This document shows positions 31,244 to 53,337 of a stretch of 64,000 nucleotides of DNA, in pieces (position 1 is the stretch's first letter; each line of letters opens with the position of its first letter). The translations under genes were made by a program, and so were the position numbers. The stretch covers positions 96,001 to 160,000 of IMG/VR virus record IMGVR_UViG_3300028920_000029. One strand, 5' to 3'. The DNA is from a virus. The notes under the pieces were generated by a model. That model was not told the DNA's origin and made no database searches. It saw only the letters and a list, made by a program, of their open reading frames with translations.

Positions 31244-31525
31244 TCATCTATCGTGGGCGCTTATCTGAATAACTATAGAGTTGTTAGGCTCTCGTATTAG
31301 TCTATCTGCTATAGCATCCTGCTCTATTGATTTAAAATCCCAACGATCTTTTACACGTAACTTTGCCGAGGGAAACCTTTTTCTTATAGCAGAAACTACG
31401 GCGGTTATGCTTACTCCTTTTTTAGGTGTAATATCGCACAGATACCATCCAAAACTTCCTGCGCCATAAAAGGTGCACTTAAACAACTTATCGTAGTTTT
31501 CCAAAGTTGATTCCTTATTTCTCAC
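31244..31525 (-). CDS. PKKGVSxTA-family protein
   Basis: ITPKKGVSITAVV. Confidence 0.65.
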   Translation of the reverse strand: MRNKESTLENYDKLFKCTFYGAGSFGWYLCDITPKKGVSITAVVSAIRKRFPSAKLRVKDRWDFKSIEQDAIADRLIREPNNSIVIQISAHDR

Positions 31526-31757
31526 AGAATGTTCCTACGGCGTAACTAACGCCCAATAATGCTACCACAATCATACCGCCATAAAAACTTATTTCGTTTG
31601 TTGTGTACCATTTATGGAGTGCCCAGAGTATTACTGCTAGTGCGTCCAGTATTACTACGGTTATTCCTATGTGCAGTAATCCTATGCCTATTCTTCGTAG
31701 AATAACTTTCCATATAGGTTCTATTACGGGATCTGGATCGGACCATAATTCTGACAT
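31515..31757 (-). CDS. small membrane protein
   Basis: two TM segments; AAGGAGG RBS and promoter upstream. Confidence 0.65.
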   Translation of the reverse strand: MSELWSDPDPVIEPIWKVILRRIGIGLLHIGITVVILDALAVILWALHKWYTTNEISFYGGMIVVALLGVSYAVGTFCEK

Positions 31758-31796
31758 ACCGTGCCTCCTTCAATGTAGTATATCGCTTACAGTATA

Positions 31797-31824
31797 AGTA
31801 TACTGATAGAATTGGATTTGTCAA
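31797..31824 (-). promoter_or_regulatory. sigma70/sigmaA-type promoter
   Basis: TTGACA-16nt-TATACT with AT-rich upstream element. Confidence 0.75.
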
Positions 31825-31845
31825 GAAAAAATTTAAGAAATTTTA

Positions 31846-31878
31846 TGGTGCCAGCAGATGGACTCGAACCACCGTAGC
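31846..31878 (-). pseudogene. orphan 3' half of a tRNA (T-arm, acceptor strand, CCA)
   Basis: GGTGG-TTCGAGT-CCATC-TGCTGGC-A-CCA; acceptor strand pairs with 32534-32540. Confidence 0.8.
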
Positions 31879-31882
31879 TATA

Positions 31883-31966
31883 TGGTGGGCAGGGATGGAT
31901 TCGAACCATCGTACCCGAGGGAACGGATTTACAGTCCGCCGCCTTTAACCGCTCAGCCACCTACCC
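31883..31966 (-). tRNA. tRNA-Tyr(GTA)
   Basis: cloverleaf, loop CT-GTA-AA, long variable arm, CCA. Confidence 0.95.
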
Positions 31967-32443
31967 ACGTTTTTTACTACCATATGTATCTGTTTGAGTA
32001 TGACAATTTGGACAAAGAATTCTTAGGTTCTCTAATCTATTGTCAGTATGATCACCGTTTATATGGTCTAAGTGCATACTTAGTTTTTTATTATTCCATA
32101 CGTTACCTTGACTACATTTCTCACATATTTCCTGCTTTAATCCAAACTCATATAATTTTTGTTTTAATGCATGACTTGTCCACTTAGCACCATCTAAACA
32201 AAGAACATTTTTTGTGAAGGACGTTATGGAGTGTTTCCTGCTATTGGCCCCAGTAGATGACCACCCACGATTTTTAAAATGGGACGTATCTAGCCCATAA
32301 TCCTTAATACGTTTAGCCACTAAATTGTGACTTCCTCCACCTACTCGTAAACCTAACTCTCTAATAATGTCCGCGACATTATAATGTCTTTTGACTAACT
32401 CGTTTAACAGTTCCTTACTATATTTTGTAGTATTTGCTTTCAT
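31961..32443 (-). CDS. HNH homing endonuclease (start revised to MKANTT)
   Basis: CEKC...LDHINGDHTDNRLENLRILCPNCH; stop codon lies inside the 5' end of tRNA-Tyr. Confidence 0.9.
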   Translation of the reverse strand: MKANTTKYSKELLNELVKRHYNVADIIRELGLRVGGGSHNLVAKRIKDYGLDTSHFKNRGWSSTGANSRKHSITSFTKNVLCLDGAKWTSHALKQKLYEFGLKQEICEKCSQGNVWNNKKLSMHLDHINGDHTDNRLENLRILCPNCHTQTDTYGSKKRG

Positions 32444-32470
32444 AGTAAACCTCCTATCTAGAATACTACT

Positions 32471-32499
32471 AGTATAGCATATTATAGTGACAAAAGCAA
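32471..32499 (-). promoter_or_regulatory. promoter of the HNH cassette
   Basis: TTGCTT-17nt-TATACT. Confidence 0.55.
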
Positions 32500-32504
32500 A
32501 TACC

Positions 32505-32540
32505 AACAGCCAGATGTCATTGCCGCTAGACTATACTGGC
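32505..32540 (-). pseudogene. orphan 5' half of a tRNA (GTN anticodon)
   Basis: GCCAGTA-TA-GTC..GAC-A-TCTGG-CTGT then breaks off. Confidence 0.8.
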
Positions 32541-32548
32541 ACTATATT

Positions 32549-32635
32549 TGGCGGAAAGCTCAGGACTTGAACCTGAACGGGATTGCTCCCCAGAGTTTAG
32601 CAAACTCTTGCCTTACCAATTAGGTCTAGCTTTCC
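32549..32635 (-). tRNA. tRNA-Ser(GCT)
   Basis: AGAGT-TTGCTAA-ACTCT, long variable arm. Confidence 0.92.
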
Positions 32636-32643
32636 TTTATTTC

Positions 32644-32739
32644 TGGAGGAGAGGGAGCGATTCGAACGCTCGAGCGTCATCTCTGACGCCACCTATTTTC
32701 AAGATAGGTAGAATAAACCTGACTCTCTTACACCTCTCC
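32644..32739 (-). tRNA. tRNA-Ser(TGA)
   Basis: CCTAT-CTTGAAA-ATAGG, long variable arm. Confidence 0.9.
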
Positions 32740-32745
32740 TCTATA

Positions 32746-32824
32746 TGGTTGCGGAGGTCAGATTTGCACTGACGTTGTTTCAGGGTATGAGCCTGCTGCT
32801 GGAACTACTCCAGCCCACTCCGCT
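32746..32824 (-). tRNA. tRNA-Met(CAT), initiator-like
   Basis: CT-CAT-AC loop, unpaired 1:72. Confidence 0.8.
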
Positions 32825-32831
32825 TATTTTT

Positions 32832-32908
32832 TGGTCCCCAAGCCTGGAGTTGAACCAAGAAAAAGCAGGTTTTGAATCTGCCGCCTATGCCAATTCGGCT
32901 ACTTGGGG
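32832..32908 (-). tRNA. tRNA-Leu(CAA)
   Basis: TT-CAA-AA loop, short variable region. Confidence 0.88.
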
Positions 32909-32909
32909 T

Positions 32910-32995
32910 TGGTGCGCCAGGTAGGACTTGCACCTACACGACCGAAGCCGACGGATCTTAAGTCCGTTGCGTCTGCTAAATTCCGCCACTAGCGC
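32910..32995 (-). tRNA. tRNA-Leu(TAA)
   Basis: ACGGA-CTTAAGA-TCCGT, long variable arm. Confidence 0.92.
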
Positions 32996-32996
32996 T

Positions 32997-33072
32997 TGGT
33001 GGGTCCACAGGGAATTGCACCCCAATCTTCCGATTAAAAGTCGGAAGCTCTAACTAATTGAGCTATAGACCC
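32997..33072 (-). tRNA. tRNA-Lys(TTT)
   Basis: TCCGA-CTTTTAA-TCGGA. Confidence 0.93.
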
Positions 33073-33073
33073 T

Positions 33074-33150
33074 TGGTGCCCCTAGAAGGATTTGAACCTT
33101 CAGAATTCTGATTCTAAGTCAGATAGCTATACCGATTCGCCTATAGGGGC
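33074..33150 (-). tRNA. tRNA-Leu(TAG)
   Basis: TCTGA-CTTAGAA-TCAGA, short variable region. Confidence 0.88.
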
Positions 33151-33152
33151 AT

Positions 33153-33227
33153 TGGTGCGTCGAGGTGGGAACGATCCACCGACCTTCTCCTTAAGAAGGA
33201 GCAGCTCTACCACTGAGCTACCGACGC
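33153..33227 (-). tRNA. tRNA-Lys(CTT)
   Basis: CTCC-TTCTTAA-GGAG. Confidence 0.9.
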
Positions 33228-33231
33228 ATTA

Positions 33232-33304
33232 AAGGTTGGGCTGCGTACACGCTGTATCGTTTCTCCAAGGATTACGCCTCCTAGGCGACCAACTACCCAA
33301 CCTT
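33232..33304 (-). ncRNA. unidentified ~73-nt structured RNA
   Basis: 9-bp closing stem AAGGTTGGG/CCCAACCTT with internal CGCCT/AGGCG hairpin; fills the gap between RNase P RNA and tRNA-Lys. Confidence 0.45.
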
Positions 33305-33312
33305 ATTTTTAA

Positions 33313-33603
33313 AAGTAATTCATAACCCAGGTTCTGTTTTTGCAGTCATTAATCTTAGCGTCCTTACCCGCGTGCTCCGTGAGGTCTCATCATCACACGC
33401 CTATTTGGACTTGCTCACAGTAAAGGTTGGTCGTCTCACTTGTTTTTAGTTTATATAATTTTCAGAATCTGAGTTTTTATAAAACTAAAAACAACTCGTC
33501 TCTGTCCCCTATTTGTCGCTCACGCGCCCAGCTTTTAAGACTGGTACTGCGCCTCAATTGAGCCTGGAGTTTCCTCGGTTTCCCGCGACTGCTTGAATCA
33601 CTC
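33313..33603 (-). ncRNA. rnpB: RNase P RNA
   Basis: P1 GAGTGATTCA/TGAATTACTT, P2 GCAGTC/GACTGC, GAGGAAACTCCAGG and AACAGAACCTGGGTTAT forming P4 with the bulged U; ACAGA, GAGCAAG motifs. Confidence 0.9.
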
Positions 33604-33816
33604 TTATTTTTTCAACAATGCAATTAATTCTCTTCTAGCTTTTGCTTCCTCTGGGGTATCGTGAACACTATGATCTACCCATTTAACATCCACTTCTGAA
33701 TACTCAACAAATCTACCATCAACTAAAATCCATCCTCGTTTTGTGTTTTTGTTTCCAAATAATACTGGTCCAGCAATTTGTACTTTTTCTCCTGTAGCTT
33801 TAATTATTGCTTCCAT
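33604..33816 (-). CDS. hypothetical protein (start revised to MEAIIK)
   Basis: AAGGAGGT RBS; the longer ORF in the track overlaps tRNA-Asp. Confidence 0.65.
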   Translation of the reverse strand: MEAIIKATGEKVQIAGPVLFGNKNTKRGWILVDGRFVEYSEVDVKWVDHSVHDTPEEAKARRELIALLKK

Positions 33817-33841
33817 TTGTTTACCTCCTTCCCGTAAATTT

Positions 33842-33916
33842 TGGCGCCCCACGACAGAGTTGAACTGTCCTATTCGGCGCGACAAGCCGACGTAATAGCC
33901 GATATACGAGTGGGGC
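33842..33916 (-). tRNA. tRNA-Asp(GTC)
   Basis: TCGGC-TTGTCGC-GCCGA, G73. Confidence 0.9.
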
Positions 33917-33928
33917 ACTATTTCTTTT

Positions 33929-33957
33929 AGTATACTTAAAATACCAACAAGCGTCAA
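33929..33957 (-). promoter_or_regulatory. internal promoter upstream of tRNA-Asp
   Basis: TTGACG-17nt-TATACT. Confidence 0.7.
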
Positions 33958-34199
33958 TTAGCTTTTTTATTTTTTACTATACTTCTTAATTTATTATGCA
34001 GCCCAGCAAAAATTGGCAAATAAACATTCTTAAACGTTTCTTTCCATTTTTCACAGTATGGACAACCGTCTATGTGATCGTCCTCATTTATGTGTTTCTT
34101 ACACATATGTACGCCGTCTTCAGCAATATAATAGTGTTCCGTCTCAGTTACCAAAATCGGTTCCGTTACACCTTTTCGATACAATAATTTTTTACCCAT
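33954..34199 (-). CDS. hypothetical protein
   Basis: 81 aa, AAGGAGGTGA RBS, own promoter. Confidence 0.65.
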   Translation of the reverse strand: MGKKLLYRKGVTEPILVTETEHYYIAEDGVHMCKKHINEDDHIDGCPYCEKWKETFKNVYLPIFAGLHNKLRSIVKNKKAN

Positions 34200-34219
34200 A
34201 GTTCACCTCCTTTCTTTTA

Positions 34220-34248
34220 AGTATACTTAAGGTTTTGACATATGTCAA
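34220..34248 (-). promoter_or_regulatory. internal promoter
   Basis: TTGACA-17nt-TATACT; -35 is half of the palindrome TTGACATATGTCAA. Confidence 0.75.
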
Positions 34249-34261
34249 GCCTTTTATTTCC

Positions 34262-34336
34262 TGGCACCCCCTGTAGGCTTCGCACCCACGCACCGCGGTC
34301 CGTAGCCGCGAGCTCTGTCTCCTGAGCTAAGGGGGT
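34262..34336 (-). tRNA. tRNA-Arg(ACG)
   Basis: CGCGG-CTACGGA-CCGCG. Confidence 0.9.
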
Positions 34337-34337
34337 A

Positions 34338-34412
34338 TGGTGTCCCTTGATGGAATCAAACCACCGTCTCAGCTTTAGGAAAGCCGTGTTCTATTCACTG
34401 TACTAAAGGGAC
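34338..34412 (-). tRNA. tRNA-Arg(CCT)
   Basis: CGGCT-TTCCTAA-AGCTG. Confidence 0.9.
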
Positions 34413-34413
34413 A

Positions 34414-34489
34414 TGGTGCCCTGAGAAGGACTCGCACCCTCGACCTACGGAGTAGAAATCCGCTGCTCTGTCTCCTGAGCTACCAGGGC
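34414..34489 (-). tRNA. tRNA-Arg(TCT)
   Basis: GCGGA-TTTCTAC-TCCGT. Confidence 0.9.
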
Positions 34490-34494
34490 CTTAC

Positions 34495-34570
34495 TGGTTG
34501 CGGGACCACGGATCGAACGTGGACTATTCTGAGTCAGGGTCAGATGTTTTGCCTATTAAACTATCCCGCA
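34495..34570 (-). tRNA. tRNA-Gln(CTG)
   Basis: TCTGA-CCCTGAC-TCAGA, T1:A72; C33 instead of U33. Confidence 0.85.
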
Positions 34571-34571
34571 A

Positions 34572-35117
34572 CTATATCTTCCATTTTTTACGTCTTTTAA
34601 TAACAGCTTGACCACTACAATTTTTAATAGTAGCAATCTCTTCGTTAGTTTTTCCGTCTTTTACTAAGGCCTCAAGTTCTCTTTTGTTCCATTCTATTTT
34701 TCCAGCTAATTTTCCTGCACACATTAAAGAACAAGTTTTTCTATATGCCATCTTTTCCTTGCCACATACTGGGCAAAAATCCTTTAATTCGTTTTTAGTA
34801 GAATCTGTTATAAGTTTATCATTAAATCTCAATGCTGTTTTTGGAATTATACTTATTAATCCATGCACTTCGCTATGACAATTGCTACAAACCATAACAC
34901 ATTTTTCTACTTCTTTTTTAATTTTTATCCACTTCGTAGGATCTCTAAGCATAAAAGCAATTCCGCTTTCTTTATCTTTACTATTTAAATGATGGAACTC
35001 TAAAGCGTCTATATGTTTATTATACCCACAAATGCAACATTTTCCACCAAAACCTTCTACTAGTTTCTTTTTTGTATTCCGTCTCCAACGTTTTACAGCC
35101 TCAGATTTAGCACTCAT
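34572..35117 (-). CDS. HNH endonuclease with C-terminal Zn-finger/HTH
   Basis: GGKCCICGY...ALEFHH...KCVMVCSNCHSEVH. Confidence 0.88.
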   Translation of the reverse strand: MSAKSEAVKRWRRNTKKKLVEGFGGKCCICGYNKHIDALEFHHLNSKDKESGIAFMLRDPTKWIKIKKEVEKCVMVCSNCHSEVHGLISIIPKTALRFNDKLITDSTKNELKDFCPVCGKEKMAYRKTCSLMCAGKLAGKIEWNKRELEALVKDGKTNEEIATIKNCSGQAVIKRRKKWKI

Positions 35118-35147
35118 AGTAAAACCTCCTTATAGTTTATTACTACA

Positions 35148-35177
35148 AGTATAACATAACACGGTGTGTTAATGCAA
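35148..35177 (-). promoter_or_regulatory. putative promoter of the second HNH
   Basis: TTGCAT-18nt-TATACT with extended -10 TG. Confidence 0.5.
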
Positions 35178-35192
35178 CTTGTTACGTTATAT

Positions 35193-35267
35193 TGGCTCCA
35201 GCGGGTGGAGTCGAACCACCATTTTACTCCTTAACAGGGAGGCGCATTACCATTATGCTACACTGGA
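35193..35267 (-). tRNA. tRNA-Asn(GTT)
   Basis: CT-GTT-AA, G73. Confidence 0.92.
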
Positions 35268-35269
35268 AC

Positions 35270-35346
35270 TGGTGCCTCCGAAAGGATTTGAACCTTTGGC
35301 CAAAGCGTTATCAACACTCTGCTCTACCAAGCTGAGCTACAGAGGC
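35270..35346 (-). tRNA. tRNA-Ile(GAT)
   Basis: TT-GAT-AA loop. Confidence 0.92.
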
Positions 35347-35347
35347 A

Positions 35348-35423
35348 TGGTGGAGACGATCGGGAACGATCCGACAACCCCCTGATTGCAAATCAGGCGC
35401 TCTCCCAATTGAGCTACGTCCCC
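35348..35423 (-). tRNA. tRNA-Ala(TGC)
   Basis: TT-TGC-AA, G3:U70. Confidence 0.93.
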
Positions 35424-35424
35424 A

Positions 35425-35500
35425 TGGTGGATACTTTTGGAGTCGAACCAAATTCTCTTGTTCTTCAGACAAGCGTGATGACCGCATTCACCAAATATCC
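35425..35500 (-). tRNA. tRNA-Phe(GAA)
   Basis: CTTGT-CTGAAGA-ACAAG. Confidence 0.9.
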
Positions 35501-35501
35501 A

Positions 35502-35578
35502 TGGTGCTCTCCGAAGGACTCGAACCTCCGACCCTCTCATTATGAGTGAGACGCTCTAACCGACTGAGCTAGAAGAGC
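35502..35578 (-). tRNA. tRNA-Ile2 or elongator Met (CAT)
   Basis: TCTCA-CTCATAA-TGAGA; identity not resolvable by eye. Confidence 0.85.
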
Positions 35579-35585
35579 AATATTC

Positions 35586-35659
35586 TGGAGAGGCGAGTAA
35601 GATTTTAACTTACCTTATCTGGGTTGCAACCAGACGCCTAGACACTTGGCTATCGCCTC
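35586..35659 (-). tRNA. tRNA-Cys(GCA)
   Basis: TT-GCA-AC, U73. Confidence 0.88.
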
Positions 35660-35670
35660 TCTTAATTCTC

Positions 35671-35745
35671 TGGTAGTCGGAGTGGGTACTGCCCCCACCT
35701 GGTCCTCTTTGTAAGAGAGGTGCATGACTAATCTGCCATCCGACT
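35671..35745 (-). tRNA. tRNA-Val(TAC)
   Basis: CCTCT-CTTACAA-AGAGG; atypical D and T loops. Confidence 0.85.
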
Positions 35746-35766
35746 TCTATTAAGATCTATAAATCC

Positions 35767-35840
35767 TGGTTGCCTCAGAACGGGTCGAACGTTCGCTACC
35801 TGTGTCAAAAACAGGCGTGCTACCACTACACTACAAGGCA
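35767..35840 (-). tRNA. tRNA-Gln(TTG)
   Basis: CCTGT-TTTTGAC-ACAGG, T1:A72. Confidence 0.9.
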
Positions 35841-35844
35841 TTTT

Positions 35845-35918
35845 TGGAGAGGGCTAAGGGACTCGAACCCTTTTTTTCAGTTTGGAAGACTGGAGTTAAA
35901 CCTATTAACTAAGCCCTC
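35845..35918 (-). tRNA. tRNA-Gly(TCC)
   Basis: CT-TCC-AA, U73. Confidence 0.88.
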
Positions 35919-35920
35919 TC

Positions 35921-35991
35921 TGGTACCACGAACTGGAATTGCACCAATCCTCTGGGCGTATGAAACCCTGAGTCCATCTAATGGTCGTGGC
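35921..35991 (-). tRNA. atypical tRNA(CAT) with shrunken D-arm
   Basis: acceptor GCCACGA/TCGTGGT, GGGT-TTCATAC-GCCC, T-arm, CCA; D-arm reduced to CCAT-TAG-ATGG. Confidence 0.7.
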
Positions 35992-35999
35992 CTATATTT

Positions 36000-36075
36000 T
36001 GGAGCCCACGGAGGGACTTGCACCCCCAACCGTCGGTTTACAGGACCGCTGCTCTTCTATTAAAGCTACGCGGGC
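36000..36075 (-). tRNA. tRNA-Thr(TGT)
   Basis: CGGT-CCTGTAA-ACCG, C2:G71; C33. Confidence 0.85.
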
Positions 36076-36085
36076 TCTTAATTTT

Positions 36086-36159
36086 TGGTGTGAGGCGGGG
36101 ATTTGAACCCCTCTGGGAGAGCCACAATCTCCCGTGCTAACCATTACACTAGCCCCACC
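36086..36159 (-). tRNA. tRNA-His(GTG)
   Basis: TT-GTG-GC loop, encoded G-1. Confidence 0.9.
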
Positions 36160-36162
36160 ACT

Positions 36163-36237
36163 TGGCACCGCCGTAAGGAATCGAACCCTATCTTTCTGTT
36201 CTGGAGACAGATGTGCTAACCATTACACTACTGCGGC
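36163..36237 (-). tRNA. tRNA-Trp(CCA)
   Basis: TCTGT-CTCCAGA-ACAGA, G73. Confidence 0.92.
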
Positions 36238-36240
36238 ATT

Positions 36241-36317
36241 TGGTGACGCATGTGGGACTCGAACCCACAATCCTCAGACTGAAAATCTGATGGCTTAAAC
36301 CATTTGCCTAATGCGCC
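36241..36317 (-). tRNA. tRNA-Glu(TTC)
   Basis: TCAGA-TTTTCAG-TCTGA. Confidence 0.92.
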
Positions 36318-36349
36318 ACATCTCTTTAACTGTTAAGAACTATAAGTGC

Positions 36350-36426
36350 TGGTCTAGGTGGAAGGATTTGAACCTTCGACATCTTGCTTCCAAGGCAAGC
36401 AGGCTACCAGACTGCCCCACACCTAG
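36350..36426 (-). tRNA. tRNA-Pro(TGG), first gene of the array
   Basis: CTTGC-CTTGGAA-GCAAG, C1:G72. Confidence 0.92.
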
Positions 36427-36431
36427 TCGTT

Positions 36432-36471
36432 AAAATAAAAAAGGCCCGACGGATTTCTCCGCCAGGCCTTT
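36432..36471 (-). terminator. intrinsic terminator (attenuator) directly upstream of the tRNA array
   Basis: 14-bp stem AAAGGCCTGGCGGA-GAAA-TCCGTCGGGCCTTT running into a U-rich tract, ending 5 nt before tRNA-Pro. Confidence 0.9.
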
Positions 36472-36492
36472 GTCTAGTACTACTCTAATTCG

Positions 36493-36645
36493 TCACATAG
36501 AGCTGCCTGGCAGACCTGGCGGTTTTTGTGTATCTATACATACCGCCGCCAACAGAATATAGGCATGCATAAATAACTGGCTATCGCCAAGCCATTCTGC
36601 TCTTCGCCTATTCTCTGTGGTCTGTGACAAACTCTTAAGCAACAT
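36493..36645 (-). CDS. 50-aa leader peptide containing all 20 amino acids (not in ORF track)
   Basis: AGGAG RBS at 36655-36659; MLLKSLSQTTENRRRAEWLGDSQLFMHAYILLAAVCIDTQKPPGLPGSSM*; lies between promoter and terminator. Confidence 0.8.
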   Translation of the reverse strand: MLLKSLSQTTENRRRAEWLGDSQLFMHAYILLAAVCIDTQKPPGLPGSSM

Positions 36646-36717
36646 GATTTATTTCTCCTAATTTTGGTGCTATGTTGGACTAGCACCTTATGCTAACACA
36701 ATCTTTATGACAATACA

Positions 36718-36746
36718 AGTATACTCATGGTTTCGGTAAATGTCAA
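36718..36746 (-). promoter_or_regulatory. promoter of the leader/tRNA operon
   Basis: TTGACA-17nt-TATACT. Confidence 0.85.
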
Positions 36747-36759
36747 GTAAATTTGTAAA

Positions 36760-37107
36760 CTAAGTAATAAAAAATGTACAGTATAAAACGCCCACAAGAA
36801 GTATAATTCCCATAGCAGTAACAAACAAAATTTCTGAAATAATACTGCGCTTCTTAAACCTGGTACACCTCCCATTCTTATTAAGCTGTGCTTGGCCTGC
36901 TATCCTAACTTTTTTACATTGTGTACCATATGTTGGATCCCACACATCTTGCGGGTCAAAACAATCGTCATGAGTACACACAATAGTATAGCCACTAATA
37001 ACTATGCTAGAATTGGGTTCATTGGGATCAATAAACCTCTCTTCTACACTGGTGTACCCATTATTTAGATATGTACAATCTTCACACTTTACCGTGCCTT
37101 TTTTCAT
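36760..37107 (-). CDS. Cys-rich protein with C-terminal TM anchor
   Basis: CEDC..C..C..C..C, hydrophobic tail. Confidence 0.6.
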   Translation of the reverse strand: MKKGTVKCEDCTYLNNGYTSVEERFIDPNEPNSSIVISGYTIVCTHDDCFDPQDVWDPTYGTQCKKVRIAGQAQLNKNGRCTRFKKRSIISEILFVTAMGIILLVGVLYCTFFIT

Positions 37108-41922: not shown

Positions 41923-41950
41923 AGTATACTGATAAATTGCTATTTGTCAA
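41923..41950 (-). promoter_or_regulatory. sigma70/sigmaA-type promoter
   Basis: TTGACA-16nt-TATACT. Confidence 0.75.
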
Positions 41951-42788
41951 GGTCTTTTCTAAGTTTTTTTCTAATAGGTATTTCGCTTTCTAGGCACCCA
42001 ACACTTCCAGATCCCATACCATTTTGTAAGGTTTCTACATACTTACCTATTTTTAAACATCCTGGGGGCTCTATAGAGGACGCCTGGTCTGTGCCGTACA
42101 TCGATCTATCAAGTGTTATATGATACTCTAACATTTCCGCCCCCAATAAGTACGCCGCCACAATAAAGATTATTCCTGCATAATGATTTGAGTAGCCTAT
42201 TTTATACTTATCTCCATACATATCCTTAAGTGTTGATAAACGTTTTAGATTTACATCTTTCACTGGGGTGGGGTAGCTTGAAGTACACGACAGTATATAC
42301 TCAACAGTATCTCCAAAGATTTCTAAAGCTGCGTTTAGTTCATCAATACTACTCATACCAGTGGATAGTATAACCTTTTTACCCGTACCCTTTATTTTCT
42401 TAAGTAGAACTTTGTCCGTCAACGACGCCGACGCAACCTTTATATATGGTATATCAAATTGGGATAAAAATTCTACTGAGTTAACATCCCAAGGTGTGGC
42501 AAACCAAGCGATACCCTTATACTTACAATACTTATCTATTTCTTTATATTCTCGTAATCCGAATTCTCGAGCCCTTTTGTAATCCCCTACCGTAGCACCC
42601 CATGGAGACTCCAGATACTTATCAAGCTCCTCTTGTGTATATAAAAAATCTATATCTCTTTTCTGAAACTTAACTCCGTAACAACCACTAATAGCGGCGA
42701 TATCTATAAGTTCTTTAGCCATATCCACGTCGCCATTAGCGTTTATACCTATTTCAGCTATAAGTTTTGTATTAGACACCGTGCTCAC
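41940..42788 (-). CDS. neuB: N-acetylneuraminate (nonulosonic acid) synthase family
   Basis: IAEIGIN, VKFQKR, KVAS, LSTGMS, CTSSYP, GYSNH, EYHITLDR. Confidence 0.9.
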   Translation of the reverse strand: MSTVSNTKLIAEIGINANGDVDMAKELIDIAAISGCYGVKFQKRDIDFLYTQEELDKYLESPWGATVGDYKRAREFGLREYKEIDKYCKYKGIAWFATPWDVNSVEFLSQFDIPYIKVASASLTDKVLLKKIKGTGKKVILSTGMSSIDELNAALEIFGDTVEYILSCTSSYPTPVKDVNLKRLSTLKDMYGDKYKIGYSNHYAGIIFIVAAYLLGAEMLEYHITLDRSMYGTDQASSIEPPGCLKIGKYVETLQNGMGSGSVGCLESEIPIRKKLRKDLDK

Positions 42789-43464
42789 CCCAATACTGTT
42801 TTAAATTTTCTTCACAGATAATCAAATCTGTAACGTCGTCTATCTCTTGAAGTTGCGGTTTATCCATCAGATATACGGAAATCTTTCCTCCCAGCCTGTT
42901 ACGGTGCTTTTTTATAAAGTCTGGAGTGAATATGTATATGGACCCGTTTTCTACTATCAAAGTTTTTCTATTGTCGTCTTGGCGCATACCCCTATTCTTG
43001 TAATCATACGTTACGCTATTTGGTGTATCGTCCCAAACACACGCAGAGGTTAGCGGTACACCAGAAAATAGCGTATCTGCCTCCTCCAATACATACTGAT
43101 CTAAAGCCTTATCGATATCGCCGACATATCGTAAAGGTGACGTAGCCTGAAGAAATACTACCAAGTCAATATCTTTTATACCTGAGTAATCCAATACGTG
43201 AATAATTGCGTCTTCCGATGGAGACGTATCTGTGGCCATACTTTCTGGTCTATCTACTACGCAAACCTCGGGATATCTTTCTTGTACAAACTCCATTATA
43301 TCTTTGCTATCGGTAGTAACAAATACTTTACTAACTTTAGTACTATCTAACGCGGATTCTATTGTCCAAGATACCAGCGGCTTTCCATTTATTGGTATTA
43401 AGTTTTTTCCTATAATACCCTTAGATCCACCACGAACAGGTATTATTGCAACTACGTTATTCAT
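42772..43464 (-). CDS. neuA: acylneuraminate cytidylyltransferase
   Basis: IPVRGGSKGIIGKN, LQATSPLR, ENGSIY, EIDD. Confidence 0.9.
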   Translation of the reverse strand: MNNVVAIIPVRGGSKGIIGKNLIPINGKPLVSWTIESALDSTKVSKVFVTTDSKDIMEFVQERYPEVCVVDRPESMATDTSPSEDAIIHVLDYSGIKDIDLVVFLQATSPLRYVGDIDKALDQYVLEEADTLFSGVPLTSACVWDDTPNSVTYDYKNRGMRQDDNRKTLIVENGSIYIFTPDFIKKHRNRLGGKISVYLMDKPQLQEIDDVTDLIICEENLKQYWGEHGV

Positions 43465-43583
43465 ACTTTTCTAAACCCCCTAAAAGACGCATCCTTATTT
43501 TTGTATAGTCTGTCTATAGAAGCCAAAGTTGACGCGCAGTTTTTTGTGTAGTAATCCATTATCATATACTATTACTAGTGTTC

Positions 43584-44534
43584 TCATTGTATGCTCGCTT
43601 TAAAATATTCTATGGTTCTTTTTAGTCCTTCATCTATTGAAGTTTTAGCTTCGAACCCCAACAACTCCCTAGCCAATCTCGTATCGCTTTGTCTAGTTCT
43701 ATACCCTACCCGTTCAATACTTTTATCAAATACAACATTAGCGTTACTTCCACTAATGTATACTATTTTTTCTACTAAATCTTTTATAGTTATTTGGTCA
43801 TCACATGCTAAATTTATTGGAGTAGCATCCTTAGACTTTTCTGACGCCAAAAGTATTCCTTGTACTATATCCTTTACATATATAAACGATCTTGTTTGTA
43901 AACCATTACCCCACACCACTATTTCGTCTTTAGTTACGGCCTTGTTAACTAACGCAGCCACTACGTGCGCCACCTTAGGGTCAAACTTATCTTTAGGGCC
44001 GTATGCGTTGGACGGCCTAACTATAGTAACTGGTTTTCCAGAATATTTATACATAGTTTGCCCAAGCTGTTCCATAGTTCTCTTAGCTAATCCGTAGCCT
44101 AAATTTGTTTCTTCTGGAAGGTCTAAAAACCCTGCGGATTCTGGAGTGGGTACCTCAGCGTCTCTAGCGTATACGCAGGCCGAACTCACTAACGTAACTG
44201 CTTGGATATTATTGTCCTGTATGGCTTGAAGTACATTACTTGACATAATAACATTATTATTAAATATGCTAAAGTTACTATTCATATTGTACTCTATACC
44301 TCCAACATCTGCTGCCAAATGCATTACATGATCGAAGTCTTTGATAGCTTCAACACACTGTGGTAGATTTTTAAGATTTGCAGTTACGACTTTACATCCC
44401 ATAAACATATCTTGAGGAATTCTAGATAGTATACTAACATCAGCCATCTCTGATTTTAACGCCTCACATAGATGTGAACCTATGAACCCAGAGCCTCCAG
44501 TAACTAAGACTTTTTTGTTTTTCCAAAAACTCAC
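43584..44534 (-). CDS. NAD(P)-dependent GDP-sugar epimerase/reductase (Fcl/ColC/GME-like)
   Basis: TGGSGFIG, LAADVGGI, SSACVY, YGLAK, VWGNG..RSFIYV. Confidence 0.85.
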   Translation of the reverse strand: MSFWKNKKVLVTGGSGFIGSHLCEALKSEMADVSILSRIPQDMFMGCKVVTANLKNLPQCVEAIKDFDHVMHLAADVGGIEYNMNSNFSIFNNNVIMSSNVLQAIQDNNIQAVTLVSSACVYARDAEVPTPESAGFLDLPEETNLGYGLAKRTMEQLGQTMYKYSGKPVTIVRPSNAYGPKDKFDPKVAHVVAALVNKAVTKDEIVVWGNGLQTRSFIYVKDIVQGILLASEKSKDATPINLACDDQITIKDLVEKIVYISGSNANVVFDKSIERVGYRTRQSDTRLARELLGFEAKTSIDEGLKRTIEYFKASIQ

Positions 44535-45694
44535 TTTAGTATCTCCTCAAATGTTTTTCCTATGTAGTCTATATCGCTATCCGTTATATACTGATGACAT
44601 CCAATGTAAAATGCTTGTGACCCTAGAAATTCCGCATTCTTTAATTTACCCTTATACTCAAATTTAAAGTTTGAATATGCTGGCTGTTGTGTAGGTATAC
44701 ACCCAAACAGCGGCCTCGACTCAATTCCTTTAGCTGTTAGTTTACTCATAAGCTCTTCTCTATTTAGGTTGGTAATTATTGGATATGCTAAATAGCTTAC
44801 GTTCTCGTCATACTTAGGGAGTATCAAAGCGTTCGAAATTCCTTTTAGCCTATTGTTTAGTTTCTTAACATTTTCTGATCTTACTTTAACTATTTCATCC
44901 ATTTTAGCTATCTGCCCTATCCCTAACGCTGCTTGAAATTCCATAGTCTTAAAATTATATCCTACATGGGTATGCGTAAACCTTGGGTTGTTTCCTTCTT
45001 TTGGACACGTACCTTGAGCCTTCGTGCACACCAAACAATCACATGCCCTACCATTAGCTTTTAATCTCCTTATTAACTTCGCGACTTCTGCATCATCGGT
45101 AACTATAGCTCCCATCTCGCCAACCTGAATGTTGTGCGCTATATAAAAGGAATAGTCCGCAAGTAACGACATAGTGCCCACATTCTTTCCGTTTATCTTG
45201 GTTCCGTGAGCTTGTGCAGCGTCCTCAAATACAGTTAGGTTATACTTTTTGGCTAGATAGTTTATTGCGTCCATGTCGCATGGATAACCCATTAAATGTA
45301 CTGGGAGTATCGCGGCGTATCCTTTCGGGTCAACCTGTAGTAACGACTCCACCTCAACAATAGACATATCAAACGTTATGGGGTTCACGTCAACATATAC
45401 TGGTTTAAGTCCTGCAAGTATTAAGGCGTTTGATGTTGCTACATAAGTCAGCGGAGTAGTAATAACTTTGCTGCCTTTAGGAACCTTATTAAGGTACTTA
45501 AGCGCTAGCAAGCCTACAAGCAGTGCAGACGTACCAGAGTTAACCGTTACACAGTATTTTGTACCTATCTTCTTGGCAAACTCTTTTTCAAACTCCTTAA
45601 CATACTTGCCTTCGGATATCTGCCCAGAGTCTAATACGGCGTTAATGGCGTCTCTTTCTTCCTTACCTATTCTAAAATCTCCTACCCTAATCAT
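44531..45694 (-). CDS. DegT/DnrJ-fold PLP enzyme, probable 3-dehydratase (ColD/RfbH-like)
   Basis: VNSGTSA, EDAAQAHG, SFYIAHN with His at the catalytic Lys position, Cys cluster CDCLVC..C. Confidence 0.8.
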   Translation of the reverse strand: MIRVGDFRIGKEERDAINAVLDSGQISEGKYVKEFEKEFAKKIGTKYCVTVNSGTSALLVGLLALKYLNKVPKGSKVITTPLTYVATSNALILAGLKPVYVDVNPITFDMSIVEVESLLQVDPKGYAAILPVHLMGYPCDMDAINYLAKKYNLTVFEDAAQAHGTKINGKNVGTMSLLADYSFYIAHNIQVGEMGAIVTDDAEVAKLIRRLKANGRACDCLVCTKAQGTCPKEGNNPRFTHTHVGYNFKTMEFQAALGIGQIAKMDEIVKVRSENVKKLNNRLKGISNALILPKYDENVSYLAYPIITNLNREELMSKLTAKGIESRPLFGCIPTQQPAYSNFKFEYKGKLKNAEFLGSQAFYIGCHQYITDSDIDYIGKTFEEILK

Positions 45695-45695
45695 A

Positions 45696-46661
45696 CTAGC
45701 CCTCCTTTAGCAACTTTATATCTTCGTGGACCATCATGTCTATTAATTCTTCAAAACTAACCTTAGGCTTCCACCCAAGTTCTGCCTCAATTTTTGTAGC
45801 GTTACCTACCAAAAGATCAACCTCGGCTGGCCTATACAATTCCTTATCAATCTTTACATAGTTTTCGTAGTTTAGCCCTACTCCGCCGAACGCCACCTCT
45901 AACAACTTTTTAACAGTATGTGTCTTTCCAGTTGCAATCACATAATCTTTCGGCTCGTTGTTTTGTAGCATCAAATACATAGCCTCAACATAGTCACCAG
46001 CAAATCCCCAATCTCTTTTGGAATCTAAATTACCCATACTTAAACTTTTTGACAGTCCCAACTTTATCTTTGCAACTTCATGAGTTACCTTTCTAGTAAC
46101 AAACTCCATTCCCCTACGCGGGCTTTCGTGATTGAAGCACATTCCAGAACACGCAAAAAGATCATAACTTTCTCTATAATTTACAGTAGCCCAATGACCG
46201 AAAACTTTCGATACTCCATAAGGACTTCTAGGATAGAAAGGTGTTGTTTCAGTTTGTGGAGTTTCAACTACCTTACCGAACATCTCACTACTAGATGCTT
46301 GATAAAATTTCGTTTTAGGACTAATCAATCTTATAGCCTCAAGCACATTTACAACGCCAACACCCGTAACGCTAGTCGTTGTAAGCGGTGCTTTCCACGA
46401 ATGAGGCACAAATGACTGCGCACCAAGATTGTACACTTCATCTGGCTTAACATCTCTCAGTATTGAAATTAAAGAAGACAGATCTGTTAAATCTCCAGAT
46501 ACAAATGTGATACTATCGAGCAGGTGGTCGATTCGATGTGTAGTTGTGGTACTTGAGCGTCGCTTCAACCCAAAAACATTGTATCCTTTATCTAGCAACA
46601 ACTCTGCCATGTAAGATCCATCTTGCCCAGTAATACCTGTAATAAGTGCCGTTTTACGCAT
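45696..46661 (-). CDS. gmd: GDP-mannose 4,6-dehydratase (start revised to MRKTAL)
   Basis: [42 protein letters not shown]. Confidence 0.95.
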
Positions 46662-46662
46662 G

Positions 46663-47787
46663 CTAATCCTCCAGTGCCTTTTTCGCCAAAATAAACCTGC
46701 GAAGTATTTTGTTGTCATCTTTTATTTCTCCAGCCACCTTAAGTGAGAAACCACTGTAGAGTAAGTACTTAATTTTTTTATCAAAGTTTTTATCTACTGT
46801 AGTTACATCTCCACTTTCCAATAAAAAATATCCTCCAGGATTTAGTAACCCTTTAACTTTATCACAAAACTCAATAAAAGTATACCTTGTATAAAAATCT
46901 ACTACTAACGAAAGTATGATATCATATTTAGCCGTAACGTTAAAATCTTCGAAGCTTATATTATATAGGGTACAGTTCGGTATATCTAGTATTCTTTTAG
47001 CCTCATTACCTACGCTTACAAGATCGGCGTTTATATCGATAGCGTCTACATGTTTTACATACCTACTTAACACTAGCGATATAAATCCCGTATTACACCC
47101 TATATCCAGTAGTTGCGAGTTAGCATTTATAACTGATTCTATACTGTACTTTTCCAACCTATGTAACGTAGAACGTTGACCAGTTAGTTTTAATAGCGGA
47201 CAGCTTTGATAAAAATCTCCACGACCTAATAATTGCTTTGAGGCTGTGTATGCCTCTTTTAAACTAATTATATCGGCCACTTTTTTCTTAGCAAAATCCT
47301 CGGATATACGATAGTTAAACTTAATCAGGTCCCACGTTTTGTTAACAAGATTAAGTTCTTTTGGTGAAAAGTTACGATTTTCAAACCAATCTATACCATA
47401 TCTCGGATCACCGTCTTCCCGAATAAGTATCTCAAACTTTGATACGTTAGCAAACAAAAGAATGCACGCAAGCCTGTGAGCGCCATCGATTACACGTAAA
47501 TGCTTGTTCACAATTATAGGAGACGCATAGTTATACCCGTTGGCTTGAATAGACCTAATGAGGAGTTTAAATTTTTTTACGTACATATCCGCATCATGAT
47601 CGGACATACCCAATCTTTCCTGCTGCATTTTTTTATATAAGGCTATTCCAGGACCTTGCGTTTTGCTTACTAGTTCTTCTGCTGCAAGGTATCGTACCGC
47701 AATATCATATCTGTTAAACGTGTATGCCCCTCCATCTTCAACAAATTGATCCAATAACAGCTGTCTCGGTGTTGTTAGTGCGTGCAC
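46663..47787 (-). CDS. ParB-like domain fused to class I SAM methyltransferase
   Basis: IDGAHRLA and LDIGCNTG. Confidence 0.7.
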
Positions 47788-48716
47788 TAGTTTTCTCCTT
47801 GTTTAAGTATATTGTCATAAATTTTTTCATATTCTGCAACTATGTCTTTTGGGTTCCAATATTTTCGCATCCACTCTTTATTTTTCTTTCCCCTATGTAT
47901 AAGATTTTTTCTTCCTAAACCAACCAAACCATTTAAGTGACCCTCTAAATCATCAAGCCAAACGTTATCTACGGGTAACATGTCACTTCCAGAAACTTTC
48001 TTAAATATTGATTCTACCTCGTCATCCATGGAGCAAATAGTTACGGCTCCCTGCGCTAAACCTTCAAGCGTACATCTATGATAGCTTTTTGTTACACACT
48101 CATCTATGTGGATTACACATACGGATTTTCGACGCATACACATCTCAAAACTAGTATTACTTATAATATCTATTTCAACATTATTAAACTTACGTACCAT
48201 ATTATCAAGAATTTGTTTTGTCTCTGGAACCGCTTTACTTGAGTAGGTTCTATTTCCTCTTGGTAATAGTGTGGACGGAGAAAACGCTATTCTTATGTTT
48301 GTAGATTTATCAACATACTTGTACAATTCGTCATCCAAGTCTATAATATTTCTGACCCACAAACAATTCTTATACTCTGGTAGTGTCGCGTGGAATTGTG
48401 CTATTACTAATTTTGTGTAGGGAAACTCTAATTGTGTAACCTGCCCAACGCTATGATACTGAATGACCTGAGGTTTTGTCGTTTTTAAAAACTTGTTGTG
48501 GAAATGTACTATACTATACTTGTTAAAATTAGTATCCTTTAGTATTGGTATGTCTTTTCTTGGTATAGAATTTGACCTATCGCCGCCATAGAATTCATTT
48601 TCGTTTGGGCTAATCAACACTGCGCGGTATCTGTCGCTATACTTATTTATACACTGTACTAAGGCATCTGGTGCCCACGCTATAGGCGTCTCTTTGTAGT
48701 GTGCAACGGTTAACAC
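47787..48716 (-). CDS. putative GT-B glycosyltransferase
   Basis: C-terminal LEGLAQG...YEKIY pattern; cluster context. Confidence 0.5.
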   Translation of the reverse strand: MLTVAHYKETPIAWAPDALVQCINKYSDRYRAVLISPNENEFYGGDRSNSIPRKDIPILKDTNFNKYSIVHFHNKFLKTTKPQVIQYHSVGQVTQLEFPYTKLVIAQFHATLPEYKNCLWVRNIIDLDDELYKYVDKSTNIRIAFSPSTLLPRGNRTYSSKAVPETKQILDNMVRKFNNVEIDIISNTSFEMCMRRKSVCVIHIDECVTKSYHRCTLEGLAQGAVTICSMDDEVESIFKKVSGSDMLPVDNVWLDDLEGHLNGLVGLGRKNLIHRGKKNKEWMRKYWNPKDIVAEYEKIYDNILKQGEN

Positions 48717-48728
48717 TTTGTATCTCCT

Positions 48729-49424
48729 TTAATTTTTTCGTTGCCCATCATTAAGCTCCTCCTTTAGTCCGTTAATTTGTTCCAGTATTGTATATTTTCT
48801 ATACCCATCTCGTATATAACTATATCCGTATCTTTGACCAACTAAGGGAGGATTTATTACGTATGACTTTCCTCTGGGATGTACATGATCCCCTAAAATT
48901 GTATCAATTGCCACATTATAACTACTACACGCATTCATGGCAATATCATAACATGAGTTGTGAATTAAGTATGCGTGAGTACACAAGGTTCTTGATGTCT
49001 TAAATACCTGATTATTATCTGTTTCTTGTAGCGTATTCCACCACGATGTACCTCCTAGATAAAACATCTCCCATTGGTGAGTACTTATAAAGTTGCGTAC
49101 AACATCTAAGTGGTTATTGAAGTGATCAAATATTTTTAGGTCGTCTTCAAACACGCAGATATACTCTAAGTTTCGCTCCTTTGCTAAGCTAACTATTTTA
49201 TGGTGTCCCATTCTACACCCAGCGTCTCTATCCTCTGTGGTTTTACCGCCGTTAATTATTACTCCCTGTATTTCCTCAAACTTTATGTCGGGAATTTTTC
49301 CTATTTCTTTTTCAAAATCATTCCATCTTTCTTCTTTGAGGGTATCTAGTGTCAGTACAAACGTGTTCTCAAATAAATTTTCCATACAATTACTCCTATA
49401 ATGTTCCATATTCAAACGCGTCAA
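48729..49424 (-). CDS. glycosyltransferase family 25-like
   Basis: GCRMGH, VFEDD, YLGG, THAY. Confidence 0.75.
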   Translation of the reverse strand: MTRLNMEHYRSNCMENLFENTFVLTLDTLKEERWNDFEKEIGKIPDIKFEEIQGVIINGGKTTEDRDAGCRMGHHKIVSLAKERNLEYICVFEDDLKIFDHFNNHLDVVRNFISTHQWEMFYLGGTSWWNTLQETDNNQVFKTSRTLCTHAYLIHNSCYDIAMNACSSYNVAIDTILGDHVHPRGKSYVINPPLVGQRYGYSYIRDGYRKYTILEQINGLKEELNDGQRKN

Positions 49425-50136
49425 ACGTAGGATTCTTACTTATATTAAGTATTTTTAAACCCTTACGTTTGGCGTGCTCGTTTAATATTTTAAAATTTTC
49501 TACTATTATATGTCTGTGAGGAACAAACCCCTTCCATCCAGGAACATTTGGTATTTCCAATATATTATTACCAGCATACCCATACGCGTAGTCCAACTCA
49601 ACGCCAACCACATATATTGGATTGCACAGCATAAGAATTGCAAAAGAAATGCAGTGTTCTATAACAGTGTATACCGCGGTATTTCTTTCACTATACCCAG
49701 TAAATTTTTGGACCTCCTCTTGTATTGTAAGTCTACCAGGTATTCTTCGGGCGCAACAATCGTACACCTTACATAAGTCTTTGTGTAAAGGTCTATCTGT
49801 GAAATGTCTTTCATCAAATTGAAGATAGTCCACCTTTAGAAGTTTTTCAGCTTCTTCTCTCGGAGTTTGGTCAACTGATTCAGCGTAAAAAACTGGTACC
49901 CCTCTAGAGTTTATTACTTCATGTAGGTTTTTTATGGTATTGACGTTGTTAGATAACATCCAATAGTGCATATTTACGTCGGTAAGTTTGTACCACTGGT
50001 TACAGGACATCATAATATACTTACTTCTGTACTCCTTTAGCTTATCTAAATGTGGGTTTAAGCTAGGCCCTAACCCCATAATAAAGCAAGGCTTATTTTT
50101 ATGCTTACCCAGTATATCTTTAATTTGAAGTTTCAT
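49396..50136 (-). CDS. DUF115/Maf-like (sialyltransferase-related) protein
   Basis: FIMGLGPSL, SCN, PIYVVGVE. Confidence 0.6.
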   Translation of the reverse strand: MKLQIKDILGKHKNKPCFIMGLGPSLNPHLDKLKEYRSKYIMMSCNQWYKLTDVNMHYWMLSNNVNTIKNLHEVINSRGVPVFYAESVDQTPREEAEKLLKVDYLQFDERHFTDRPLHKDLCKVYDCCARRIPGRLTIQEEVQKFTGYSERNTAVYTVIEHCISFAILMLCNPIYVVGVELDYAYGYAGNNILEIPNVPGWKGFVPHRHIIVENFKILNEHAKRKGLKILNISKNPTFDAFEYGTL

Positions 50137-51035: not shown

Positions 51036-51862
51036 TGCTTATCCTCCAATATAAGGCTGTAGTCTCTTTCTTCGTGCACCGAAGTTGGTGTGTGGCCATA
51101 AAAGTTTTTGGTATCTATTTTGTACCCCTTTAAATACTTATCATTTAATGTAGTTAGAGAAAACTCCTCATTAGTTCCGTGAGGTGTATACCCCCGTTGC
51201 GTAAGGTTGTTTGGAACTGTCATCAAACACGTATGTAAATCAGAAACCATCATAGGTTTTTCTGAGGTACGTTTACCATTCATCTGTCCTTCCAACGCAT
51301 TTGGATGTTCAAAGTTTAATGTATTAACTATTTTAGTAAAATACTCCCTCTTATATATGTGGGAATCTACAGCGTGTGGATAACCCCACTCACCTCGCGG
51401 GTCCGACGATCTCCAGTCCCACTTTAAAAAGTCTTTTTCTTCGCAAAAACTTGGCGTAGTTACCTTTATTCCTGCAGAATGACTGTACGTAAGCTGCTTA
51501 CTCATGCGAAGTGACACACACGTTACGTCATCGGTATAGGCTTGTAACAGCAAACTAATATTGGGTTGTCGAATTACTACGCAATCGTCAACAAACCCAA
51601 TAATATATTCCCCAGAAAACGACTTCAACATAGCCAAAACCTGAGGTTTAAACTCGCTTTCTTTTATCCACGTAACTGTTAGATTTTTATTGCTAGCGTA
51701 TGTATTTATGAGCTTATCATACCCAAGTTTAAATTGGTCATTAGAATACGTATATATAATACTAACTTCGGATATTTCTTTAAAGTTATCCTGTATACTT
51801 TGTAATAGTAAACTTAACTGCATGGCTCTATCTTTTGAAAATACAAACGCGTCTATACTCAT
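51032..51862 (-). CDS. GT-A fold glycosyltransferase
   Basis: FSKDRAMQL, FVDD. Confidence 0.6.
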   Translation of the reverse strand: MSIDAFVFSKDRAMQLSLLLQSIQDNFKEISEVSIIYTYSNDQFKLGYDKLINTYASNKNLTVTWIKESEFKPQVLAMLKSFSGEYIIGFVDDCVVIRQPNISLLLQAYTDDVTCVSLRMSKQLTYSHSAGIKVTTPSFCEEKDFLKWDWRSSDPRGEWGYPHAVDSHIYKREYFTKIVNTLNFEHPNALEGQMNGKRTSEKPMMVSDLHTCLMTVPNNLTQRGYTPHGTNEEFSLTTLNDKYLKGYKIDTKNFYGHTPTSVHEERDYSLILEDKQ

Positions 51863-53333: not shown

Positions 53334-53337
53334 TTAC

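Follow-up and report, generated by a model that had tools for sequence, protein, structure and literature searches.

A predicted reduced class A RNase P RNA gene within the tRNA array of a complete phage genome

Organization of the tRNA array and the RNase P RNA gene

We analyzed a 64,000-nucleotide stretch of viral DNA (hereafter, the window), which comprises bases 96001–160000 of a 173,362-bp IMG/VR record (IMGVR_UViG_3300028920_000029) rated 100% complete by CheckV. The window holds a cluster of tRNA genes that is interrupted by two HNH homing-endonuclease genes, and a gene for an RNase P RNA lies within this cluster, on the same strand as every one of the tRNAs. Coordinates of all features are given in Table 1.

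Table 1. Features of the RNase P RNA gene and of the surrounding tRNA array (positions in the window)
Feature	Position	Strand	Basis
tRNA array, 29 genes, interrupted by two HNH endonuclease genes	31883–36426	minus	
HNH homing-endonuclease genes in array	31961–32506, 34572–35117	minus	
Promoter-like TTGACG-17-TATACT, just ahead (about 6 nt) of tRNA-Asp	33929–33957	minus	Consensus match only
tRNA-Asp(GTC), first gene of unit	33842–33916	minus	
70-aa orphan ORF with strong AAGGAGG ribosome-binding site	33604–33816	minus	
RNase P RNA gene, 297 nt, reduced bacterial class A (predicted)	33308–33604	minus	RF00010 match and MFE fold
Minimal P3, 3 bp (CGG/CCG), with GAAA tetraloop (GNRA)	33576–33585	minus	Model alignment and mapping
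CR-I and P4 5' strand (GAGGAAACUCCAGGCUC), with bulged U37 (= E. coli U69)	33560–33576	minus	
P12, 23-bp AU-rich hairpin, 29-nt insertion relative to model	33438–33496	minus	Alignment and local fold
Junction in place of P13/P14, keeps GUGA (A169 = E. coli A180)	33431–33440	minus	
L15 GGGUAA, RNA positions 236–241 (G237, G238, U239 = E. coli G292, G293, U294)	33364–33369	minus	
J15/2 and CR-IV (AGAUUAAU), joined straight to P15	33348–33359	minus	
J2/4 and CR-V with P4 3' strand (AAAAACAGAACCUGGGUUAU)	33322–33341	minus	
77-nt tRNA-shaped element between RNase P RNA 3' end and tRNA-Lys(CUU)	33228–33304	minus	

ARAGORN identified 26 of the tRNA genes, each ending in CCA. Three additional cloverleaf-like genes (Val-UAC, Thr-UGU and a CAU species) were found in gaps of the array; all three are likewise CCA-ended, and the Thr gene was also scored as a tRNA in the Rfam scan. 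These genes together agree with the initial annotation, which had counted 29 CCA-encoding tRNAs and had described their spacers as often 1–3 nt: eight spacers are 1 nt long and two are 2 nt long. T immediately precedes the mature tRNA 5' terminus in 14 of the 26 ARAGORN predictions, and C does so in none. Outside the cluster, no tRNA or other Rfam RNA was detected in the genome. The second of the HNH genes has relatives of 33–43% identity in unrelated large phages. A 181-aa ORF of the array encodes an HNH endonuclease with relatives in unrelated phages that have no RNase P.

The RNase P RNA gene appears to belong to a predicted unit with the order tRNA-Asp, 70-aa ORF, RNase P RNA, 77-nt hairpin and nine tRNAs. 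Near-identical copies of the promoter-like sequence ahead of this unit, TTGACA-17-TATACT, recur three times in the cluster, at 36746, 34248 and 31824. The first of these (36746–36718, minus strand) stands upstream of the first tRNA of the array (Pro), in the region 36432–36746, which also contains a strong terminator, made up of a 14-bp hairpin and a U tract (36471–36440, minus strand), just upstream of tRNA-Pro.

On its 5' side, the RNase P RNA gene abuts the 70-aa ORF, whose stop codon touches the first base of the RNA. This ORF matched only itself among 5.8 billion proteins and had no family match; because it is an orphan and is not basic, a role as protein cofactor is without support. On the 3' side lies the 77-nt element, which has a 10-bp closing stem (−27.6 kcal/mol, z = −2.9), a small hairpin, and a long arm with the 7-nt loop GCGUAAU, in which a GUA anticodon could be read. 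The element lacks CCA, was not scored as a tRNA, and matched no Rfam family at a threshold as loose as E ≤ 1; it could represent a degenerate tRNA, or else a processing signal that sets the 3' end of the RNase P RNA. We saw no terminator after the RNase P RNA, so that the RNA would have to be excised from a longer transcript.

An Rfam scan of the window matched the gene to RF00010 (RNaseP_bact_a) with E = 1.9e-33 and a score of 112.1 bits, which places it in the family by score with a margin of only 12 bits over the gathering cut-off of 100. The alignment spans model positions 1–367 and is not truncated. RF00010 was the top-scoring family of the RNase P clan for this interval, and the match was the only non-tRNA Rfam match of the window. 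The minimum free energy (MFE) fold of the 297-nt RNA yields P1, P2, P3, P8, P9, P10/11, P12 and P15–17 unaided, with an energy z-score of −3.7 relative to dinucleotide shuffles. The initial annotation had placed an RNase P RNA at 33313–33603, with no strand given, and had named a covariance-model search as one way to check it. That interval falls inside the match, and the search, with its score above the curated threshold, did not refute the claim. We concluded from the sequence that the locus is a reduced variant of the bacterial-type class A RNase P RNA family in a viral setting.

Other genes of the record attest to its viral origin. It encodes a terminase large subunit, a portal, a family A DNA polymerase, tail proteins and an SbcCD-like nuclease; the nearest GenBank phages show only ~24% identity, in the SbcC-like protein. 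The RNase P RNA gene is located ~129 kb into the record, amid phage genes on the same strand, and its G+C content is 0.43 as against 0.40 for the genome. In an independent assembly (Logan), positions 31500–37000 of the window were found in a single contig of 137,010 nt with no differences over 5.5 kb; the contig comes from the sole public run that contains this DNA, a DNA library from marine sediment and probably the very sample from which the record derives. The initial annotation recognized no rnpA in the window, and this absence extends to the whole record, in which PF00825 had no match (10 of 14 control genomes did). Neither a CCA-adding enzyme nor RtcB was found in the phage genome. Elsewhere in the window, a cluster of roughly 14 kb (41940–55885, minus strand) encodes a NeuB-family synthase, a cytidylyltransferase, epimerase/dehydratases, an aminotransferase, a SAM methyltransferase and several glycosyltransferases (GT10 twice, GT25, and a 623-aa double glycosyltransferase). 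Together these genes resemble a phage pathway for making and transferring a nonulosonic (sialic-like) acid.

Predicted structure of the RNA

Helices were mapped from the model alignment, in which RNA position i corresponds to window position 33605 − i, with E. coli rnpB (M1 RNA) as the reference for residue numbering. All 89 mapped pairs are standard. They are distributed across P1 (10 bp), P2 (6), P3 (3), P4 (8), P5 (4), P7 (5), P8 (5), P9 (4, with a GUGA loop), P10 (2), P11 (4), P12 (23), P15 (4), P16 (6) and P17 (5). The core helices P1, P2, P3, P5, P7–P11 and P15 are thus all present and fully paired, with P3 reduced to 3 pairs from the 9 of the Rfam consensus. The mapping recovered the elements that the initial annotation had described, namely P1, P2, a very short P3 (here with its GAAA cap), an AT-rich hairpin in the region of P12, and compensatory changes in P4 (CTCCAGG/CCTGGG) around a bulged U.

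In P4, all eight pairs are standard (A34-U281, A35-U280, C36-G279, C38-G278, C39-G277, A40-U276, G41-C275 and G42-C274, with U37 bulged). The CR-I/P4 5' strand differs from its E. coli counterpart, GAGGAAAGUCCGGGCUC, at two positions, and both differences are compensated on the 3' strand: relative to M1, G68-C358 has become C-G and G72-C355 has become A-U. Further double changes relative to M1 were observed at one pair in P5, three in P7 and one in P15, and no pair was broken. Random decay would not leave a pattern of at least seven double compensatory changes with none that is disruptive.

Conserved regions CR-I to CR-V all aligned to the conserved blocks of the model, reading in order GAGGAAAC-UCC, ACAGAGA, GUGA, AGAUUAAUG (CR-IV) and ACAGAACC-UGGGUUA (CR-V). 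Residues expected to contact the substrate are also retained. In E. coli, G292, G293 and U294 pair with the 3' CCA end of the tRNA (PMC11143913), and retention of this GGU site in L15 fits the encoding of CCA by all 29 tRNAs of the array. A193 is the equivalent of the J5/15 adenosine A248 of E. coli. The adenosines A89, A169 and A177/178 correspond to E. coli A118, A180 and A232/233, of which A118, A180 and A233 are named as contacts of the tRNA elbow (PMC11143913).

What the RNA lacks are whole peripheral helices, cleanly excised. P13/P14 are absent, with 3 nt opposite 45 model positions, and P18 is absent, with 0 nt opposite 24 model positions. The P6 pseudoknot, formed between L17 and J5/7, is doubtful, as the L17 loop GACC pairs, by eye, with at most 2–3 nt of AGGCG. 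The predicted catalytic and pre-tRNA-recognition core is intact. P13/P14 and P18 are typical of class A and dispensable for chemistry, but E. coli M1 without P18 cleaved a model substrate at a rate more than 3000-fold lower (PMC11143913). P18 and P13/P14 brace the two domains, and in view of the effect of deleting P18 the phage RNA by itself may be a poor enzyme if neither a protein nor the lengthened P12 makes up for the loss.

Distribution among phages and cellular genomes

Searches for an orthologue of this RNA returned none. With blastn, no GenBank phage matched. In 185,579 species-representative genomes, exact copies of the 17-nt CR-I string numbered 36, and none of them lay in an RNase P RNA, which argues that the gene is not a fresh capture from a host. 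Its sole match in IMG/VR (L002) was rejected as an orthologue, being a chance 20-nt identity with neither RNase P nor tRNA. A CR-IV/CR-V pattern carrying the flipped pair of P4 gave 42 chance matches in IMG/VR, none with CR-I upstream, and three matches among metagenome contigs, none related: the first belongs to a bacterial RNase P RNA of full size, another is cut at the start of its contig beside a bacterial SRP RNA, and the third (L123) has no Rfam match. Because no orthologue was found, selection is judged here from comparison across the family and not from covariation within the lineage.

Phages with a related terminase, at most 67% identical, were likewise without the gene: RF00010 was found in 0 of 38 such IMG/VR records (whole records, E ≤ 0.01). 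In G090, the nearest of the complete relatives (150 kb, terminase 49% identical), there is a single tRNA and RNase P RNA is absent. Three other relatives, G094 and the more distant G096 and G097, have 9, 63 and 28 tRNAs, respectively, and no RNase P RNA was detected in them; a scan at E ≤ 1 covered the full arrays of G094 and G097 and, of the G096 array, the last part only (L219, without L217 and L218). The absence of RF00010 from relatives with 63 and 28 tRNAs indicates that an RNase P RNA gene is not required for big arrays generally, and its absence from the terminase relatives searched marks it as an accessory gene of patchy distribution.

G096 itself (IMGVR_UViG_3300028800_000066) is an 88-kb partial contig with a terminase of 34% identity; its 63 tRNA matches extend over about 43 kb, at about 39–82 kb, and it has no RF00010 match at E ≤ 0.01. 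Two other terminase relatives carry a gene like that of a CCA-adding enzyme, with PolyA_pol and HD domains (L124, 4630–6198; L126, 831–1580), a few genes upstream of the terminase; the phage studied here has no such gene, and each of its tRNAs encodes CCA.

RNase P RNAs were found in other IMG/VR contigs when we scanned that collection with the P4 5' strand, leaving two positions free, and then ran RF00010 over whole records. The scan yielded 23 RNase P RNA matches. At least 13 of these lie inside tRNA arrays, several of them in records rated complete (162–463 kb); the remaining matches have no tRNAs nearby, and the short, high-scoring contigs among them (275–328 bits) look bacterial. In two records, of 372 kb (G002, locus L094) and 497 kb (G068, locus L109), the RNase P RNA is nearly full-size (247 bits, 339 nt) and has no tRNA within 1.5 kb on either side; these records could be huge phages that have the gene on its own, or host DNA. 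BLAST matches to M1 in phage records of GenBank were rejected because the records look like bacterial DNA. One of them, 'Microcystis phage MaAM05' (L300, MW495066.1, 112323–118518), has an unannotated M1-like stretch amid fabI, engB and mtgA, and this record may be partly bacterial DNA.

No array copy is closely related to the RNA described here, with no sequence kinship detected beyond the universal core, and the terminases of the phages that carry them do not match the terminase of this phage. All five of the array copies that we inspected lack P13/P14 and have a short P3, and one of them also lacks P18. Such shared losses of helices among phage copies that are not related point to convergent streamlining. 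One copy of 263 nt (L103) shares with our RNA both the lack of P18 and the A-U pair in P4, and another (L099) likewise has a long AU-rich P12, whereas only the RNA described here combines a long P12 with a 3-bp P3 and the absence of P18. The sixth pair of P4 is G-C, A-U or C-G among the phage copies, and the flipped C-G third pair, next to the bulged U, was seen in this RNA only among 18 RNase P RNAs compared, a sample in which the retrieval pattern let only these two positions vary.

Predicted function and comparison with known RNase P systems

RNase P RNA is among the few universal ribozymes and is treated as a cellular housekeeping gene. In classic work on phage T4, the host enzyme reportedly matures the phage tRNAs. 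The initial annotation had proposed that this phage carries its own RNase P RNA, and the RF00010 match, the viral record and the predicted intact core and recognition sites support that reading. From the homology, the intact core, the compensated helices, the setting and the viral origin of the gene we infer its expression, its use of RnpA, its catalysis and its benefit to the phage. The locus is probably a phage gene, kept by selection, whose class A RNase P RNA would act together with host RnpA on tightly packed tRNAs.

Under this interpretation, transcription from the sigma-70-like promoter would produce a polycistronic RNA containing tRNA-Asp, the 70-aa ORF, the hairpin and the nine tRNAs, and the RNase P RNA would be cut out of this precursor. 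Since rnpA is missing from the phage, the RNA presumably relies on the RnpA protein of the host in the infected cell, and the resulting holoenzyme would cleave every phage tRNA at its 5' end. The spacers of the array leave little room for other processing. Where they measure 1–3 nt and CCA is encoded, a single 5' cut would separate two neighbors and leave the upstream tRNA with its CCA plus 1–3 nt. A burst of 29 tRNAs from the array would impose a heavy load on RNase P, which extra catalytic RNA would relieve; RNase P capacity is thus a likely bottleneck for expression of the array. It is also plausible that the RNA is adapted to the tight spacers or to odd tRNAs. A virus-borne RNase P RNA would widen the known takeover of translation by large phages, from tRNAs and synthetases to the processing of tRNA, and its link to arrays with 1–3-nt spacers suggests a testable idea, that RNase P capacity limits the expression of dense arrays. 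The phage copies also serve as natural experiments on the limits of reduction of class A RNase P RNA, and offer specialists on this enzyme ready-made minimal ribozymes.

A more far-reaching interpretation, which we regard as rather unlikely, is that phage RNase P RNAs constitute a distinct and recurrently evolved viral type, without P13/P14, often without P18 and with a short P3, that forms a maturation enzyme under the control of the virus. Such an enzyme would be independent of the host RNA subunit, and perhaps of proteins altogether. Head-to-tail arrays with 1–3-nt spacers and odd elbows would be what it is tuned to, and it would excise itself from the array transcript by cleavage at the flanking tRNA-shaped hairpin. 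If this were true, the supply of phage tRNAs would continue despite shutdown of, or attack on, the RNase P or tRNA pool of the host.

Other explanations dispense with a catalytic role in tRNA maturation. The RNA could act as a non-catalytic decoy or regulator, soaking up host RnpA or pre-tRNAs through its retained binding surfaces and so throttling host tRNA maturation or timing the release of phage tRNAs. The loss of stabilizing elements (P13/P14, P18 and all but a minimal P3) would be in keeping with this role, as would the heavy cost in rate of deleting P18 (PMC11143913) and the flipped pair beside the catalytic bulged U, a flip not seen in the 18 other RNase P RNAs compared. Yet CR-I, CR-IV, CR-V and the bulged U, which serve catalysis and metal binding, are all kept, a decoy would have no need of a compensated P4, and catalytic domains without the entire specificity domain still cleave pre-tRNA (PMC11143913); we therefore consider a decoy improbable. 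We give similarly little credence to a decaying relic, that is, a non-functional rnpB copy acquired with host tRNA genes and now losing parts. A length 80 nt below that of M1, a score near the Rfam cut-off, and a sporadic distribution that leaves out the 38 IMG/VR records with a related terminase are what a relic might show, but decay is hard to reconcile with 89 of 89 standard pairs and with double changes relative to E. coli that leave every helix intact. Moreover, the deletions coincide exactly with whole peripheral helices that are missing from unrelated phage copies as well, and a core string present in no RNase P RNA of the cellular genomes searched implies long divergence during which the fold was kept.

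An active ribozyme might instead act mainly on targets other than tRNA, such as phage or host mRNAs or the adjoining tRNA-shaped hairpin. Non-tRNA substrates of RNase P exist (PMC11143913), and the unclassified hairpin lies directly at the 3' end of the RNA; the setting among 29 tRNAs, the elbow adenosines and the CCA-binding GGU nonetheless fit pre-tRNA best, and make this alternative very improbable. Least credible of all is that host DNA was misassembled into the viral contig or binned with it by mistake. Some IMG/VR and GenBank 'phage' records do carry bacterial rnpB, as the short 275–328-bit contigs and MaAM05 illustrate. Here, however, the gene sits deep within a complete record, surrounded by phage genes and with a phage-like G+C content, an independent assembler recovered the same 5.5 kb in a 137-kb contig without a difference, and the P4 variant is found in no RNase P RNA of the cellular genomes searched. 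A phage gene that probably supplies a catalytic RNA for the maturation of tRNAs remains our preferred reading.

A literature search that covered subscription journals thinly turned up no description of a phage, or of any other virus, with a gene for RNase P RNA. A survey of huge phages mentions tmRNAs and not RNase P (PMC7162821).

Compared with E. coli M1, the phage RNA has ~80% of the usual length (297 versus 377 nt). Both share P1–P5, P7–P12 and P15–P17, the P4 pseudoknot with its bulged U, CR-I to CR-V, the GGU of L15 and the elbow adenosines. Unlike M1, the phage RNA has no P13/P14 or P18, a P3 of 3 bp, a longer and AU-rich P12 and a doubtful P6; two of its P4 pairs are changed, one of them adjoining the bulged U, and it is encoded by a virus without rnpA. 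Archaeal type A RNase P RNAs, which act with four or five proteins, are likewise not known to have P13, P14 or P18 and have a similar inventory of helices. The phage RNA differs from these in that it fits the bacterial model best and keeps the bacterial CCA-binding loop L15.

Engineered RNAs that have been reduced by deletion of P18, or to the catalytic domain alone, still choose the right cleavage site (PMC11143913). These constructs are much slower, whereas the natural phage RNA has had evolutionary time in which it may have compensated. What makes RNase P essential in E. coli is its separation of polycistronic tRNAs, which for some operons does not require RNase E (PMC7049720, PMC2190699). 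The tRNAs of phage T4 arise from multimeric precursors, and RNase P is required to process these (PMC11143913); T4 depends for this wholly on the host enzyme, whereas the phage described here would contribute a catalytic RNA of its own.
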